DNA of 64,000 bases from Gemmatimonas sp. (GCA_965279375.1 OZ257156.1:704001-768000); one strand, 5' to 3'. Counted from the stretch's first letter, positions 43,370 through 48,649 are shown. Numbers and translations: made by a program. The notes: generated by a model not told the origin, from the letters alone.

Positions 43370-43417
43370 AGCGCGCCGGCTCTTCCGTCGCCGGCGCCCC
43401 TGCCCTATCGTGGACAG

Positions 43418-43888
43418 GTGACCCGAACCGCACGCCGCCCTGCGACATGGTATCGCCTGCTGATCTCCCTGTGGGGGGTCTGGTTCGCGACCGTGCTGAC
43501 GGAACCGGCGGGGCTGATGGCCTGCCCACAGCACTCCGGGCACGGTGCACAGCACGCCGCGGCACCCTCGCACGTCGCGACGCATGCGGCGCACCAGCAG
43601 AACGCACCCGCCGCCGGCCATGCCAGCGCGCACGGTTCCGCCGGCCACGATGCACACGCCACACGCGTCGCCGACGAACAGCCGCAGAACACCGGTGGCA
43701 ATCAGTGCTGCACGTGCCTTGGTCAGTGCTGCGCGGCGGCCCCAGCGGCGGCCGTCGACGCCACACCGACATTCGCCGTTGGCCTCGTGCGCACCGTCGT
43801 GCCGTTCGCCTCGGTGCACACGGCGACGCACACTCCGCGGCGCGCGTATGCGCTGCCCTTCGCTAACGGTCCGCCCGCGCGCGTCTGA
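43418..43888 (+). CDS. DUF2946/CruR-like His/Cys-rich leader protein
   Basis: N-terminal hydrophobic segment, CPQH, His-rich linker, CCTCLGQCC, C-terminal LPFANGPP; lies upstream of a TonB receptor. Confidence 0.72.
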   Translation: MTRTARRPATWYRLLISLWGVWFATVLTEPAGLMACPQHSGHGAQHAAAPSHVATHAAHQQNAPAAGHASAHGSAGHDAHATRVADEQPQNTGGNQCCTCLGQCCAAAPAAAVDATPTFAVGLVRTVVPFASVHTATHTPRRAYALPFANGPPARV

Positions 43889-44229
43889 CCGTTCCGCGCG
43901 ATCCGTCACGCAGCAGTTGTCAGGCACGTTGTTCCCGTAAGCGGTCACGCTGACGGCAACGACGCCGACACTGCGTTCAGGAAACGTCGCGACGCTCGCA
44001 CCTGCATCTCCTCGCTGCGCTGACAGCGACCGCCATCTCGTGGCGCGTCGTGCGCGCGTCGACATCGCAGACATCAACCGACCACTGCACCACTCCGCAG
44101 AGACATCCTCTGACGCCTCCACGCGCCGGCCATCGCCGCGCGTGATGGGCGTTGGCGTGATGACGTGCTGGCGACCCACTCGCTCATGGGTCGCGCACGA
44201 CTCGCGGCAACTCCTACCAGTTCGCCGAC

Positions 44230-46617
44230 ATGACCTCGCTTTCGCACTTTCGCGTACCGCAGCTGCGCTCACCGCAGCTGCGCTCACCGCAGCTGCGCTC
44301 ACCGCAGCTGCGCTCGCCGCAGCTACGGGTGCCGCTCCTCCTCCTCGGCTTGCCGCTGTTCGCGGCCACGGCCCTTGCACAGACACCGCCCGTCAAGGAC
44401 AGCACCGCAAGAGACTCCGCCGCCACTATCGGCGGTCTCAAGATCACCGCCGAACGCGACACTCGACCAGCGCTCACCAAGCTCACGCTGCCCGTGTCGG
44501 CGAGCATCACCGCCAAGCGCGTCGAGGAGACGATCAACCTCGTCGACAGCGAGGACGCAGTGAAGTACCTGCCGAGTGTGTTTCTGCGGAAGCGCAACAA
44601 CGGCGACACGCAGGCGGTAATGGGTACACGTGTGTGGGGTGTCAGTTCGAGCGCGCGCAGCCTGATCTTTGCGGATGGCGTGCCACTGTCGGCGTTGATC
44701 GCCAACAACAACAACATCGGCGGACCGCGCTGGGGACTCGTTGCGCCGGAAGAGATCGAACGCATCGACATGATGTACGGTCCGTTCTCGGCCGCGTACC
44801 CGGGCAATTCGATGGGCGCGGTCATGGAGATCACCACGCGCATGCCGGAGAAGTTCGAAGGGAGCATCGTGCAGACGCAGGCCGTGCAGGCGTTCAACCT
44901 GTACGACACCAAGCGCAGCTACGGCACGGCGCAGACCTCAGCGCGTCTCGCGAATCGCTTTGGCAAGTTCTCGTTCTCGGCGACCGGCAACTACCAGAAC
45001 AGCCACAGCCAGCCGTTGACATACGTGACGAGCGGTTCGTTCCCGGCGGGGACTACCGGCGGTATTCCGGCCACCAACAAGCTCAATGGCGCGGCCAATG
45101 TGCTCGGCGCGACCGGTCTGCTGCACACGCAGATGACCAACGCCAAGCTCAAGATCGCGTACGACATCACGCCGTCGCTGCGTGCGGCGTACACGTATGG
45201 CTACTGGCAGAACGACGCGGACGCTGGCGTGGAGTCGTACATCGCACGCAGCGGCCAGCCGACGTACGCGGGACAGGCGGGCTTTGCGAGCGGAAACTAC
45301 GGCCTGCTGCAGGAGCACTCGGCGCAGAGCCTGTCGTTGCGCAGCGACAATAGTCGCGCAACCAAGCGTGACTGGGATTTTGAAGCAGTGGCGACGTCGT
45401 ACAGCATGGACACCGATCGTCAGCGTTCGCCAACCACGGCGCTGGCGACGGGCACGAGCTTTGGCCAGGCCGGTCGCGTGGCTGTGCTTTCGGGTACGGG
45501 CTGGCAGACGCTCGATCTCAAGGGCGCGTGGCATGCCGGCGGCATCGACGCCACGCACACGGTGAGTGCCGGGATCCACTACGATCGCTATGCGCTGGTG
45601 AATCCGACGTACACGACGCCCGACTGGACGACGGGCGCGACGTACTCCGGAGTGGCGACGGAAGGGAATGGGAAGACTCGCACGTCGGCGCTCTGGGTGC
45701 AGGACGCGTGGCGCATCTCGCCGGCGTTTCGCCTGACGGTGGGTGGTCGGTATGAGCAGTGGCGCGCCTTCGACGGCTACAACGTGAACGGCAACACCAA
45801 GGTGACGCAGAAGACTGTCGACGCGGATCGCTTCTCGCCCAAGGCGACGCTGGCGTGGACGGCGTCGCCGGAGTGGACGATCACGGGCTCGGTGGGCAAG
45901 GCGTATCGCTTTGCGACGGCCGCCGAGTTGTATCAGCTGGTCTCGACGGGGGTGACGTTCACGTCGCCGGATCCGAATCTCAAGCCGGACAATGTGCTGG
46001 CGAGTGAATTGCGCATAGAGCGGGCGTTCCCGCGTGGGCGTGCGCAGCTGGCGTTGTTCAACGACGACGTGCACGACGCGATCATCTCGCAGTTCAAGCC
46101 GCTGCTGCCGGGATCGAACACCTTCTTCTCGTACATCTCCAACGTGGACCATGTGCGTGCACGAGGTGCGGAGCTGGTATTGTCGGAGACTGGCGCGCTG
46201 GTGAGCAACCTCGAGCTCTCGGGGAGCGTGACGTATCTGAATGCGCGTACGCTCGCGCTGTCGGGCCGTGCGAGTGCGACCGCGCCGACTGGTGCGGCCG
46301 TGGGCAAGCGGTTGCCGAACATTCCGGATTGGCGTGCGAACTTCGTGGCGACGTATCGGCCGGTGTCGCGTGTGGCCGTGTCGCTGGCGGGGCGTTACAG
46401 CGGTGCGTTGTGGACGACGCTCGACAATGCCGATGTGAACCCGAACGTGTATCAGGGGTTCAGCGGTTGGTTCGTGGCCGATGCGCGCGTGAGTGTGCGC
46501 ATGGGGCAGCATCTGTCGGCGGCGGTGGGCGCGGACAACGTGCTCAACCGCAAGTACTTCCTGTTCCATCCGTTTCCGCATCGAACCTTCTCGACGTCGA
46601 TCAAGGCGGGGTTCTGA
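44230..46617 (+). CDS. TonB-dependent receptor (metal/copper-associated type)
   Basis: EDAVKYLPS, EEIERIDMMYGPFSAAYPGNSMGAV plug signature, FSPK, PNLKP, DNVLNRKYFLFHP, terminal Phe. Confidence 0.92.
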   Translation: MTSLSHFRVPQLRSPQLRSPQLRSPQLRSPQLRVPLLLLGLPLFAATALAQTPPVKDSTARDSAATIGGLKITAERDTRPALTKLTLPVSASITAKRVEETINLVDSEDAVKYLPSVFLRKRNNGDTQAVMGTRVWGVSSSARSLIFADGVPLSALIANNNNIGGPRWGLVAPEEIERIDMMYGPFSAAYPGNSMGAVMEITTRMPEKFEGSIVQTQAVQAFNLYDTKRSYGTAQTSARLANRFGKFSFSATGNYQNSHSQPLTYVTSGSFPAGTTGGIPATNKLNGAANVLGATGLLHTQMTNAKLKIAYDITPSLRAAYTYGYWQNDADAGVESYIARSGQPTYAGQAGFASGNYGLLQEHSAQSLSLRSDNSRATKRDWDFEAVATSYSMDTDRQRSPTTALATGTSFGQAGRVAVLSGTGWQTLDLKGAWHAGGIDATHTVSAGIHYDRYALVNPTYTTPDWTTGATYSGVATEGNGKTRTSALWVQDAWRISPAFRLTVGGRYEQWRAFDGYNVNGNTKVTQKTVDADRFSPKATLAWTASPEWTITGSVGKAYRFATAAELYQLVSTGVTFTSPDPNLKPDNVLASELRIERAFPRGRAQLALFNDDVHDAIISQFKPLLPGSNTFFSYISNVDHVRARGAELVLSETGALVSNLELSGSVTYLNARTLALSGRASATAPTGAAVGKRLPNIPDWRANFVATYRPVSRVAVSLAGRYSGALWTTLDNADVNPNVYQGFSGWFVADARVSVRMGQHLSAAVGADNVLNRKYFLFHPFPHRTFSTSIKAGF
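44256..44330 (+). repeat. 15-bp tandem repeat (ACCGCAGCTGCGCTC) x4 plus 1 degenerate copy
   Basis: Read directly; encodes (PQLRS)n in the signal peptide n-region of the receptor. Confidence 0.95.
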
Positions 46618-46639
46618 TTTCGTGAGGTTCCTATCCGTG

Positions 46640-47236
46640 ATGCGCGCTGCCGCCGTGTGTGATGCCGTGTGTGATGCCGAGTGTTGCGCCGAAGGGCGCG
46701 GCGATCGGCTTGCGTCGACGCTGGTGCGGCCGCTGTTGTCCACGATCGTGGGCGCGCTGAGTGTGTGTGCACTCGGCGCGTGCGCGAAGGGGACGGAGCT
46801 CAAGGCGCCGGCGATCGGTGCCGCGGCGCCCGCGTACGCGGCGCATGCGCTGAGCGACACCGCCGTCACGTTGGCCGCATTGCGGGGAAAGGTCGTGGTG
46901 CTGAACGTCTGGGCCACGTGGTGCCAGCCGTGTCGGGAGGAGTTGCCGTTGCTGGAGGCCTTGCATCGGCAGCACCCCGACGTGGAGATGGTGGGTGTCA
47001 GCGTGGATGCCGCGGGGATGGGCATGGACGTGCAGGACTTCGCCAAGGAGCACGATCTCACCTACACGATCTGGCTCGATCCTGATCGGGAGTTCTCGCT
47101 CAAGTTCCTCTCGGTGGGTGTGCCGGAGACGTTCGTCATCGATCGCCTGGGTGTGATTCGGTGGCGTCATATCGGTGCGCTGGCGCGGAACGACACGACG
47201 CTGGCCGGCGCGGTGCAGCGCGCGCTTGGCGAGTGA
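46640..47236 (+). CDS. TlpA/ResA-like thiol-disulfide oxidoreductase (lipoprotein)
   Basis: GKVVVLNVWATWCQPCREELP, GVPETFVIDR.G; LGAC lipobox. Start uncertain. Confidence 0.88.
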   Translation: MRAAAVCDAVCDAECCAEGRGDRLASTLVRPLLSTIVGALSVCALGACAKGTELKAPAIGAAAPAYAAHALSDTAVTLAALRGKVVVLNVWATWCQPCREELPLLEALHRQHPDVEMVGVSVDAAGMGMDVQDFAKEHDLTYTIWLDPDREFSLKFLSVGVPETFVIDRLGVIRWRHIGALARNDTTLAGAVQRALGE

Positions 47237-47365
47237 GTCGTTGCGTTCCGCTGCCGTCCAACACTGCTGTCTAGCGCCTTTTTCCGGCGTTGCTGCTGCA
47301 AACCGCTGCATAGCGCCGCCGTCATTCCTTCGATCTCCCTCTGAGGTCTCCGCATGCTTCGAACC

Positions 47366-48649
47366 ATGAAGTTCCTCCCCACCGTCGCGGCCAGCGCCGC
47401 CTTACTCACAGGCGCAGCGCTCTCGACGGCAGCCACCGCACACGCGCAGAGCCGCCCCATCGTCCTCGCCGTCGAAGGCCGTGCCAGCGCCAACCCCACC
47501 GTCGCCAGCAACGGCGCCTTCGTGGCCGTGGCGTTTTCGGCGGCGTCCGCCAGCAGCATGGACATCTACGTCGCCGTCAGCGCTGACGGCGGTACGACCT
47601 TTGGCGCGCCTACTCAGGTGAACGCCGTCGCAGGTGAGGCGCGCGTGAGCGGCGAGGAACCGCCACGCATCGCACTCGTGCCCCGTCGTAACGCACCGCC
47701 GGAAATCGTCGTCGTCTGGACGGCAAAGGCGGGACCGACCTGGAAGCTGTTGCGCGCGCGTTCGCTCGACGGCGGCAAGAGCTTCGGCAAGACGGAAGCG
47801 GTGCCGGGTAGCGAAGGCGACGGCTCACGCGGCTGGGAATCGATGGCGGTGGACGGCAGCGGCAAGGTGAGTGTGCTGTGGCTCGACCACCGCGATCTCG
47901 TCGCCGCCGACGCCAAGATGAAGCACGACATGGGGCCCAATGCAGCGCCGATGCCCAAGGCCGATCCCACGGAGCGCGCAGGGCTCTCGCAACTGTTCTT
48001 CGCCTCGCTCGATGGCAACAAGGCGACGCCGATCACGCGCAGCGTCTGCTACGGCTGCAAGACGTCGCTCGTCGCCTCGGGCAAGAACCTCTATGCCGTG
48101 TGGCGCCACGTGTATCCGGGCGGCTTCCGCGACATGGCCTTCACCGCCTCACGTGACGGCGGCAAGACCTTCAGCACGCCAGTGCGCGTAAGCGAAGACC
48201 ACTGGCAGATCGATGGCTGCCCGGACAACGGTCCTGCCATTGGCGTGGATGCGCGTCAGCGCGCGCATGTCGTCTGGCCCACCTCGCAGGACGGCAAGAA
48301 CAACGGAGCGTTAGGCATCTTCTACGCAATCTCCAACGACGGCAAGGCGTTCGCTCCGCGCGTGCAGGTGCCGTCGCGTGGCCCCGCGTCGCACCCACAG
48401 ATCGTCGTCAACGCTGACGGCTCATCCGTCATCGTGTGGGATGAGATTGTCGACGGCACGCGCCGTTTAGGCATCACCAAGGCACGCACTGACGCCGCGG
48501 GCAAGGTCACTTTTGTACCCACTGCAGCGCCGGACGCCGGTCCGGGGCAGTGGTATCCGGCAATTGCGTCTACGGCGAATGGCGCGGTCGTGACGTGGGT
48601 GCGGCAGCAGGAAAAGGGGAGCGTGGTCGCGGTGAGCGTGGTGCGTTAG
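47366..48649 (+). CDS. Secreted BNR-repeat (sialidase-like) protein
   Basis: Signal peptide; SxDGGxTF Asp boxes; VCYGCKT and WQIDGCP motifs; Met/His segment MKHDM. Confidence 0.82.
   Translation: MKFLPTVAASAALLTGAALSTAATAHAQSRPIVLAVEGRASANPTVASNGAFVAVAFSAASASSMDIYVAVSADGGTTFGAPTQVNAVAGEARVSGEEPPRIALVPRRNAPPEIVVVWTAKAGPTWKLLRARSLDGGKSFGKTEAVPGSEGDGSRGWESMAVDGSGKVSVLWLDHRDLVAADAKMKHDMGPNAAPMPKADPTERAGLSQLFFASLDGNKATPITRSVCYGCKTSLVASGKNLYAVWRHVYPGGFRDMAFTASRDGGKTFSTPVRVSEDHWQIDGCPDNGPAIGVDARQRAHVVWPTSQDGKNNGALGIFYAISNDGKAFAPRVQVPSRGPASHPQIVVNADGSSVIVWDEIVDGTRRLGITKARTDAAGKVTFVPTAAPDAGPGQWYPAIASTANGAVVTWVRQQEKGSVVAVSVVR

Follow-up and report, generated by a model that had tools for sequence, protein, structure and literature searches.

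An arginine-less candidate ribosome-stalling leader of the CruR/CutF type upstream of a TonB receptor operon in Gemmatimonas

Introduction

The stretch of Gemmatimonas sp. DNA analysed here (GCA_965279375.1 OZ257156.1:704001-768000, 64,000 nucleotides (nt), hereafter the window) carries an open reading frame (ORF) of 156 amino acids (aa) that is rich in histidine and cysteine, ends shortly after a di-proline and precedes genes for a TonB-dependent receptor, a TlpA-like protein and a BNR-repeat protein. Does this ORF encode an exported protein with a function of its own, or is it a leader whose translation controls the downstream genes in cis? A reading made from the sequence alone (the sequence-only reading) had proposed the latter, likening the ORF to the metal-responsive leaders CruR and CutF and suggesting that their RAPP/RGPP arrest motif is replaced here by NGPP. 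We followed it up by homologue and profile searches, family-wide counts and comparison with published systems, for which we draw on those portions of the cited papers and supplements that were consulted.

It is very probable that the ORF is a regulatory stalling leader. The fuller interpretation, which we favour as reasonably likely, is that it acts in cis, senses a metal and stalls the ribosome, and that it represents a Gemmatimonadota-type version of the CruR/CutF/CopL (DUF2946-like) superfamily, one that lacks the arginine of the canonical motif.

Results

The anatomy described in the sequence-only reading, namely a hydrophobic N-terminus, a linker with about ten histidines, a CCTCLGQCC cluster, a spacer of 45 residues and a terminal PFANGPP, is present in the 156-aa ORF, which ends ...YALPFANGPPARV (Table 1). 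The ORF has twelve histidines, ten of which fall within residues 39-80, and six cysteines. A hydrophobic 15-mer above 1.4 on the Kyte-Doolittle scale occurs in 169/169 family members, and the histidine linker is constrained neither in length nor in sequence. Residues C97-C-T-C100 form a CxxC in this leader; the core conserved in the family, however, is CxCxxxC, with C98, C100 and C104 kept in 14/14 aligned leaders and C104 in 86/86. We infer that this cluster binds metal. Two rules for CutF-like proteins (PMC9973294) describe the ORF, in that its PP lies within the last 15 residues and a same-strand neighbour within 1000 nt; its length is above the 150-aa limit of the same rule set, the family median being 140.

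Table 1 Features of the leader and its operon. Positions are counted from the first nucleotide of the window.
Feature	Position	Strand	Details and evidence
-10-like hexamer TATCGT, 6 nt ahead of GTG	43406..43411	+	Sequence; probable leaderless transcript start (inferred)
Leader ORF, arginine-less CruR/CutF-type upstream ORF	43418..43888	+	GTG start, 156 aa; homologues, profile searches
Hydrophobic signal/membrane segment, about residues 11-28	43448..43501	+	Best 15-mer Kyte-Doolittle mean 1.89
CPQH motif (C36, H39) and His/Ala-rich linker	43523..43657	+	C36 nearly invariant; CxxH in 118/169 members
Cys cluster CCTCLGQCC, residues 97-105, putative Cu(I) site	43706..43732	+	Core C98-x-C100-xxx-C104
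Putative arrest motif L-P-F-A-N-G-P-P, residues 146-153	43853..43876	+	GGT CCG CCC encode G-P-P
C-rich structured intergenic region without Shine-Dalgarno sequence, candidate Rho loading/termination zone	43889..44229	+	341 nt, 128 C vs 97 G
TonB-dependent receptor, 795 aa	44230..46617	+	PF00593 E 6e-45 and Plug; 35-44% identity to Ralstonia/Komagataeibacter receptors
15-nt tandem repeat x4.6 (QLRSP units)	44256..44324	+	Expands n-region of receptor signal peptide
TlpA/ResA-like thiol-disulfide oxidoreductase (WCQPC)	46640..47236, start approximate	+	AhpC-TSA E 2e-23; NCBIfam ResA under cut-off
BNR-repeat protein, CYGCK and GCPDNGP	47354..48649	+	Pfam BNR_2 under cut-off; 27% identity to Ralstonia partner

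A protein search returned 13 homologues with 29-48% identity, and CxCxGxC and PFANGPP are kept in all 14 aligned sequences. The leader profile matches 1509 cluster representatives (50% identity clusters) at E<=1e-3, of which the best 150 were examined. Among 401 Gemmatimonadota genomes, one of them unpublished (G089), 109 are matched by this first profile and 173 by a motif-blind profile, A2, which was built from 86 leaders truncated 14 residues ahead of the di-proline. Since these 86 came from motif-bearing sequences, the blindness of A2 is limited to scoring. Its search gave 75 further matches beyond those listed, and 60 regions were fetched for inspection. The resulting blind set comprises 43 leaders, nearly all at places absent from the first-profile set (one L161 copy was already among the first-profile matches); L150 was excluded for its wrong frame and L151 because of a contig end, and the doubtful L182 was retained. 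Starting from the receptor instead, 7/40 relatives were matched, and all six with upstream DNA carry a leader, ending PYANGPP (1), PFANGPP (2) or PFAIGPP (3); the seventh match began at the contig start.

Named relatives are Gemmatimonadota in 14/17 cases, two others being labelled just 'bacterium' and one a planctomycete, in agreement with the Atlas, and no match to the leader was found in plasmid records. The family thus appears to be large and based in the Gemmatimonadota. The record labelled planctomycete (L099) encodes a typical member. At L051, L078, L161, L178 and L208 two or three leader copies lie next to each other, some as duplicated leader-target units, and at L008:847-1824 an intact leader is followed by just the last ~106 residues of a receptor, the result of an internal deletion or an assembly gap.

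Conservation at the C-terminus was tallied in 173 unique leaders, numbering residues from the first proline of the di-proline (position 0), by which the sequences were anchored (PP 173/173). Leucine at -6 is found in 138, proline at -5 in 172, phenylalanine, proline or tyrosine at -4 in 157, alanine, proline or serine at -3 in 163, and glycine or alanine at -1 in 165. Position -2 is variable, with asparagine in 73 and arginine in one. In the blind set, proline is present at -5 in 42/43 leaders and position -2 is occupied by T (11), Q (8), N (6), L (6), H (4), V (3), I (2), K (1), A (1) and R (1). The conserved motif is L-P-[FPY]-[APS]-x-[GA]-P-P. Conservation of PFxxGPP, which the sequence-only reading had singled out as a check, is upheld for the proline at -5, the unit being P-[FPY]-[APS]-x-[GA]-P-P. 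Its wording that NGPP replaces RAPP has to be given up: asparagine is one of ten residues at -2 and occurs there in just 73/173 leaders, NGPP is not avoided in the proteome, and NGPP is ruled out as the motif. The only member with arginine at -2, L183 (PATRAPP), forms a bridge to the canonical RAPP. All four proline codons are used at -5, 0 and +1 and all glycine and alanine codons at -1; because every synonymous proline codon is in use, it is the peptide that is under selection.

The distance between the cysteine core and the motif, another check named in the sequence-only reading, is fixed. The last cysteine of CxCxxxC is separated from position -2 by 45 or 46 residues in 62 of the 78 genome leaders that could be measured (19 of 97 lack the exact pattern) and in 130/151 database proteins; in the blind set, with an earlier anchoring, 33/43 leaders have 44-47. 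In the Gemmatimonas leader, 45 residues lie between C104 and N150. Past the PP the tail is mostly 1-9 residues long, and since its length varies, a stop-codon-dependent arrest of the NAP-stop type is unlikely.

The kinship of the leader to known families was assessed with profiles. For PF11162 (DUF2946), against which the sequence-only reading had suggested a search, the outcome was mixed: the ORF itself gave no match at E<=1, a search of its own genome with PF11162 found nothing, and 17/97 leader relatives match weakly at E<=0.1 (best 9.4e-5). CopL_fam (NCBIfam NF033807) aligns to residues 34-138 of the ORF with 21.9 bits, below the 40-bit cut-off, and is matched at E<=0.1 by 30/97 relatives. 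In the Atlas, a DUF2946 cluster is neighbour 3 of homologue P0015 (score 0.95, 141 shared features), which we treat as a lead. By sequence score, then, the leader seems akin to DUF2946 and CopL, yet outside both PF11162 and CopL.

Additional evidence for this kinship comes from plasmid homologues of the receptor, of which three of 108 records were inspected (Ralstonia, Komagataeibacter and Variovorax). Plasmid p56D2 of Ralstonia wenshanensis (CP076412.1) encodes an annotated DUF2946 leader followed by receptor, BNR protein and redoxin. This operon resembles that of Gemmatimonas in its homologous receptor (35%) and BNR protein (27%) and in the leader spacing of 46, and differs in its canonical CxxC/RAPP leader, in the BNR gene lying ahead of the redoxin gene and in a gap of 80 nt. 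The Komagataeibacter leader ends RLLPPLRGPP, which combines the L-P context of the Gemmatimonas family with arginine. Proline at -5 precedes the listed RAPP in 3 of the 28 DUF2946 rows examined in the supplement of PMC12992588; an Acetobacter DUF2946 protein in it ends VPPATGPP behind an internal RAPP, 46 residues past CxxC by hand count, and two more rows with a double tail end PPSRAPP and PPSTAPP. The CutF tail, P109EPEGPPPRL, fits P-x-x-x-G-P-P (bioRxiv 10.1101/2025.02.05.636593), and the motif list of the RQH family already holds QAPP, HAPP, HGPP and TGPP (PMC10987492). Tails without arginine are thus not the novelty that the sequence-only reading had considered, and because the Komagataeibacter, Acetobacter, CutF and DUF2946-row tails bridge the two, arginine-less tails with proline at -5 grade into those of known leaders. 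What is distinctive here, judged by sequence, is that an entire lineage fixes the upstream L-P context and drops the arginine.

Downstream of the leader, the gap of 341 nt and the order of receptor, WCQPC TlpA and Cys-motif BNR genes are as the sequence-only reading had laid them out. The receptor keeps His780 in 23/23 sequences, and the BNR protein keeps Cys232 and Cys235 in 36/36 each and Cys289 in 33/36. Distant receptors are the only solved relatives, none was found for the BNR protein, and none of the five PDB matches is a chain named CrtA, after the CrtA copper receptors of PMC12914433. The QLRSP repeat of the receptor was not seen in those receptor N-termini of relatives that were displayed.

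Across the family, the position ahead of uptake and metal genes that had been predicted for the leader was recovered. Of the 150 loci for which a downstream start could be called (21/171 were excluded, and families were named from cluster representatives), at least 104 have a TonB receptor as their first downstream gene; the others include a Met/His-rich outer-membrane barrel (15), an MbnP-containing cluster (10) and PCuAC proteins (8). Where at least 3.3 kb of downstream sequence was available (124 loci), 30 loci hold MbnP, MbnH, PCuAC, Sco, CopC, CopD, YcnI or CtaG and 34 hold BNR/TlpA; copper families were sought in 60 of the 115 short downstream representatives. The catalogue of CruR operons names these neighbour families too (PMC9426467). 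The receptor family of the Gemmatimonas operon is followed by CopC-CopD in 3/17 loci. No efflux or oxidase family (multicopper oxidase, CopA, Cus) was found among the scanned representatives, many single-copy genes lying outside that scan. By these associations, with the CruR-catalogue neighbours and with CopC-CopD, and with no efflux or oxidase gene among those scanned, copper import is the likeliest role of the operon. In one subgroup of loci (L046, L048, L072, L196, L198) the genes after the receptor encode DM13, an ECF sigma factor and an anti-sigma factor, and in another (L047, L060, L061) an M16 peptidase.

The leader may be translated from the very 5' end of its transcript. TAnnnT stands 5-7 nt before the candidate start in 75/169 family members, the Gemmatimonas leader included, compared with 0.56% of random positions and with 75/835 constrained ATG genes of this genome, a placement that suggests leaderless transcripts. 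Neither an intrinsic terminator nor a consensus sigma-70 promoter was found. The 341-nt gap has no Rfam match, and a riboswitch or known RNA was dismissed on this ground; an alignment of nine related gaps, the Gemmatimonas gap excluded, shows local hairpins with an uninformative covariation term (+1.02).

In CutF, a stem-loop masks the next Shine-Dalgarno (SD) sequence, and signs of such an output were found statistically elsewhere in the family. The first proline codon of the di-proline is CCT in 76/173 leaders compared with 50/683 [AG]PP sites in this genome, and leaders with CCTCC precede GGAGG in 13/65 cases vs 3/85 (Fisher p 0.002; kin are not independent). Pairing between the stall codons and the next gene start is stronger for cognate than for other loci (-13.4 vs -11.6 kcal/mol, 0/2000 permutations), with downstream starts called heuristically and kin again not independent. 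No cognate pairing was found in the clade of the Gemmatimonas leader (20 loci, -9.55 vs -9.69), the anti-SD duplex in its gap reaches just -0.7 kcal/mol, and blocking the ribosome footprint in a model of the stall does not alter how accessible the receptor start is (0.46 vs 0.47 unpaired). With no SD, no cognate pairing and no change in accessibility, masking by the proline codons is dismissed at this locus.

The same genome encodes further leaders. L039 (C1:4878838-4879347 (-)), a second family member, ends PFAIAPP and precedes the genes for MbnP and an MbnH-like di-haem peroxidase. L040 (C1:4448504-4448887 (-)) is a canonical RAPP leader that bears an HxExE/CxxxH/CxxC site and precedes another TonB receptor; leaders with and without arginine thus coexist in one genome. 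A third, CutF-like type at C1:689353-689709 (-) ends ESPPPRA upstream of a His/Met-rich exported protein. EF-P is present, the main rho gene lies at C1:2655633-2656874, and a second Rho-like gene at C1:2304914-2306008 (-) scores 445 bits, under the cut-off, in a 688-aa frame.

Discussion

Of the sequence-only reading as a whole, the CruR/CutF-like anatomy, the spacing, the operon position, the lineage-restricted arginine-less tail and the kinship to DUF2946 are supported, and the NGPP wording is not; the ORF itself falls short of PF11162. If the ORF is a stalling leader, its ligand is quite probably copper, and the polarity is probably copper-off. In the mechanism that we propose, a leaderless mRNA would begin at the GTG, as the -10 pattern suggests, and the hydrophobic N-terminus would target the nascent chain to the membrane. 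The ribosome would stall at L-P-F-A-N-G-P/P, where the computed conservation suggests that the Leu-Pro-aromatic context may do the job of the arginine. The 45-residue spacer would then place CxCxxxC just beyond the tunnel, where, by analogy with CruR and CutF, copper binding could alter the pull on the chain. At low copper the stall would persist and receptor, TlpA and BNR protein would be expressed; with copper, release would switch the operon off. The output would most likely be Rho-dependent termination in the C-rich gap, as in CruR, rather than SD unmasking; for this locus we give the Rho-dependent version an even chance.

The closest published counterpart is CruR of Bordetella pertussis (Bp2923, DUF2946/PF11162, in cruR-bfrG(crtA)-bp2921; PMC9426467, arrest PMC12992588). 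Like the Gemmatimonas leader, it is the first gene of a TonB-receptor operon and has an export signal, an extra cysteine, a cysteine site, 45 intervening residues and an xAPP/xGPP a few residues before the stop, and with the family it shares a long C-rich gap and the neighbours MbnPH, PCuAC, Sco, CopC, YcnI and AhpC-TSA. Its regulation is lost when the 45-residue spacing is lengthened by five (PMC9426467). The Gemmatimonas leader differs from it in having CxCxxxC and not CxxC, L-P-[FPY] upstream and no arginine, a long histidine linker, an apparent leaderless start and a score under the Pfam cut-off, and in its partners, TlpA and BNR where CruR has PepSY_TM. With CutF of Rhodobacter capsulatus (PMC9973294) it shares the CxxxC site, the 45-residue distance and an arginine-less P-x-x-x-G-P-P tail, and many family members, not this one, also show the anti-SD pairing. 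CutF, in contrast, switches on a detoxifying oxidase by way of a separate SD stem-loop and has PPP where most family members have a di-proline, whereas the family targets importers and the Gemmatimonas locus has neither SD nor pairing. Judged from sequence and by analogy, the working mode would be CruR-like, in view of spacing and target genes, and the tail CutF-like. CopL (NF033807) shows a weak profile likeness and precedes the copper oxidase CopA. The arrest peptides of the RQH family (RAPP, RGPP, QAPP, HAPP, HGPP, TGPP), LPPP and NAP-stop (PMC10987492; PMC10951233) likewise carry x-[AG]-P-P near the end of a membrane-targeted upstream ORF, and QAPP, HAPP, HGPP and TGPP recur in the Gemmatimonas leader's family; unlike it, the RQH-type peptides monitor Sec/YidC, and their descriptions, in the portions consulted, mention no invariant proline at -5 and no metal site.

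Several findings weigh against a metal-sensing stalling leader of this superfamily. No Pfam family matches the ORF at E<=1, including PF11162 (cut-off 23.7 bits), and when its family profile was compared directly with the Ralstonia leader, the match was insignificant (probability 1%). The Variovorax receptor homologue has no annotated leader and sits after a divergent LysR gene. The arginine that is absent here is essential in CruR (PMC9426467, PMC12992588), ApdA and ApdP (PMC10951233), and in the latter two it makes nearly all contacts with ribosomal RNA (rRNA). In a crude gene set of this genome NGPP occurs 13 times vs 6.5 expected, so that NGPP by itself is no strong arrest signal. The operon itself contains no known copper gene, and 62/124 loci hold neither a copper-family gene nor BNR/TlpA. 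As for the output, C outnumbers G in 88% of 110 gaps between leader and gene (mean 0.065), compared with 48% of 330 control regions (mean 0.0), which speaks for Rho, as do the rho gene and the absence of an intrinsic terminator; yet the controls all come from one genome, the C-G skew of the Gemmatimonas gap is within the top 7% only, and this gap folds more stably than shuffles (z -3.45), less than ideal for a rut site. In the crude gene set, RAPP occurs 6 times where 39 would be expected and RGPP 3 times where 14 would be, a depletion, unlike NGPP, that is also published for other bacteria. Also under-represented in it are TGPP (3 vs 12), IGPP (3 vs 10), LGPP (7 vs 18) and LAPP (23 vs 49), all tail variants of the leader family. 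With the arginine missing, any stall would have to depend on the L-P-F-A residues, or else be a weaker pause that, like that of CutF, is sensitive to EF-P.

The second of these possibilities leads to an alternative of CutF-type polarity, in which a weak EF-P-sensitive proline pause, prolonged by periplasmic copper, would turn on an operon for trafficking or resistance. The arginine-less tail of CutF, the likeness of its CxxxC to C100xxxC104 and its EF-P-dependent stall (bioRxiv 10.1101/2025.02.05.636593; PMC9973294) speak for it, as do the EF-P gene in this genome, the undepleted NGPP and the family-wide cognate pairing of stall codons with the next start. We consider it unlikely, given that the targets are importers and cuproenzyme-assembly genes, with no multicopper oxidase, CopA or Cus among the scanned representatives, and that the clade in question lacks cognate pairing and the modelled stall leaves the receptor start unchanged. 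A little less likely still is a stalling leader with another signal, be it zinc, nickel, cobalt or the redox state of periplasmic thiols as read by the cysteine cluster. Certain CutF-like proteins are not copper-specific (PMC9973294), six cysteines and twelve histidines exceed a minimal copper site, and the operon encodes a TlpA together with a BNR protein whose cysteines are conserved; all metal-specific neighbour families identified are nevertheless copper families, and the counterpart operon in Ralstonia is headed by a canonical CxxC DUF2946 leader.

A trans-acting exported metal chaperone or store, with its C-terminus as a sorting or binding signal, would be rich in histidine and cysteine, carry an export signal and lie beside uptake genes, as this ORF does, and we take LPFAxG to be superficially like sortase motifs. 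Such a protein is improbable here, because the Cys-to-PP distance stays constant although the linker is free to vary, because the mostly 1-9 aa after the motif hold no membrane anchor, and because every operon has its own leader copy, the tandem units at L051 and L078 included; CutF and CopL, moreover, are inactive in trans (PMC9973294). We find it most improbable of all that the tail is conserved as RNA, as an anti-SD or rut element, with ordinary arrest-free translation coupling the genes. The preference for CCT as first proline codon and the CCTCC-GGAGG association point that way; against it, the full range of codons at -5, 0, +1 and -1 indicates that the peptide is kept, and the Gemmatimonas locus has neither CCTCC nor SD.

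A wider proposal, which we offer tentatively and with some doubt, goes beyond the stalling leader favoured above. L-P-[FPY]-[APS]-x-[GA]-P-P might be a distinct, EF-P-resistant arrest class in which the invariant proline at -5 and its hydrophobic neighbour replace the arginine that binds the peptidyl transferase centre (PTC). One lineage would use it for copper beside RAPP leaders in the same genome, from leaderless mRNAs and with two outputs, anti-SD proline codons at some loci and Rho termination at others, including this one; CutF and the arginine-less alphaproteobacterial DUF2946 tails would belong to the same class. Literature searches, in one of which 20 of the 29 matches were listed and all of these were unrelated, gave no description of the motif or of such leaders in Gemmatimonadota, and the searched portions of the supplements of PMC9426467, PMC9973294 and PMC12992588 contain no Gemmatimonad term. 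Members of the family may already be included in the 5,334-protein CutF-like list and the cluster logos of PMC9973294.

Published structures account for RAPP stalling almost wholly by the arginine side chain (PMC10951233), and proteome-wide surveys of upstream ORFs that look for RAPP/RGPP or rely on Pfam do not pick up this family. Over 1000 divergent arginine-less sequences with CruR geometry would constitute a natural mutagenesis set for how a chain is held at a di-proline, and could probe whether the arginine-less stall of CutF and the arginine stall of CruR share one mechanism. For the Gemmatimonadota, a common and little-studied phylum, the leader family would predict copper-uptake genes.

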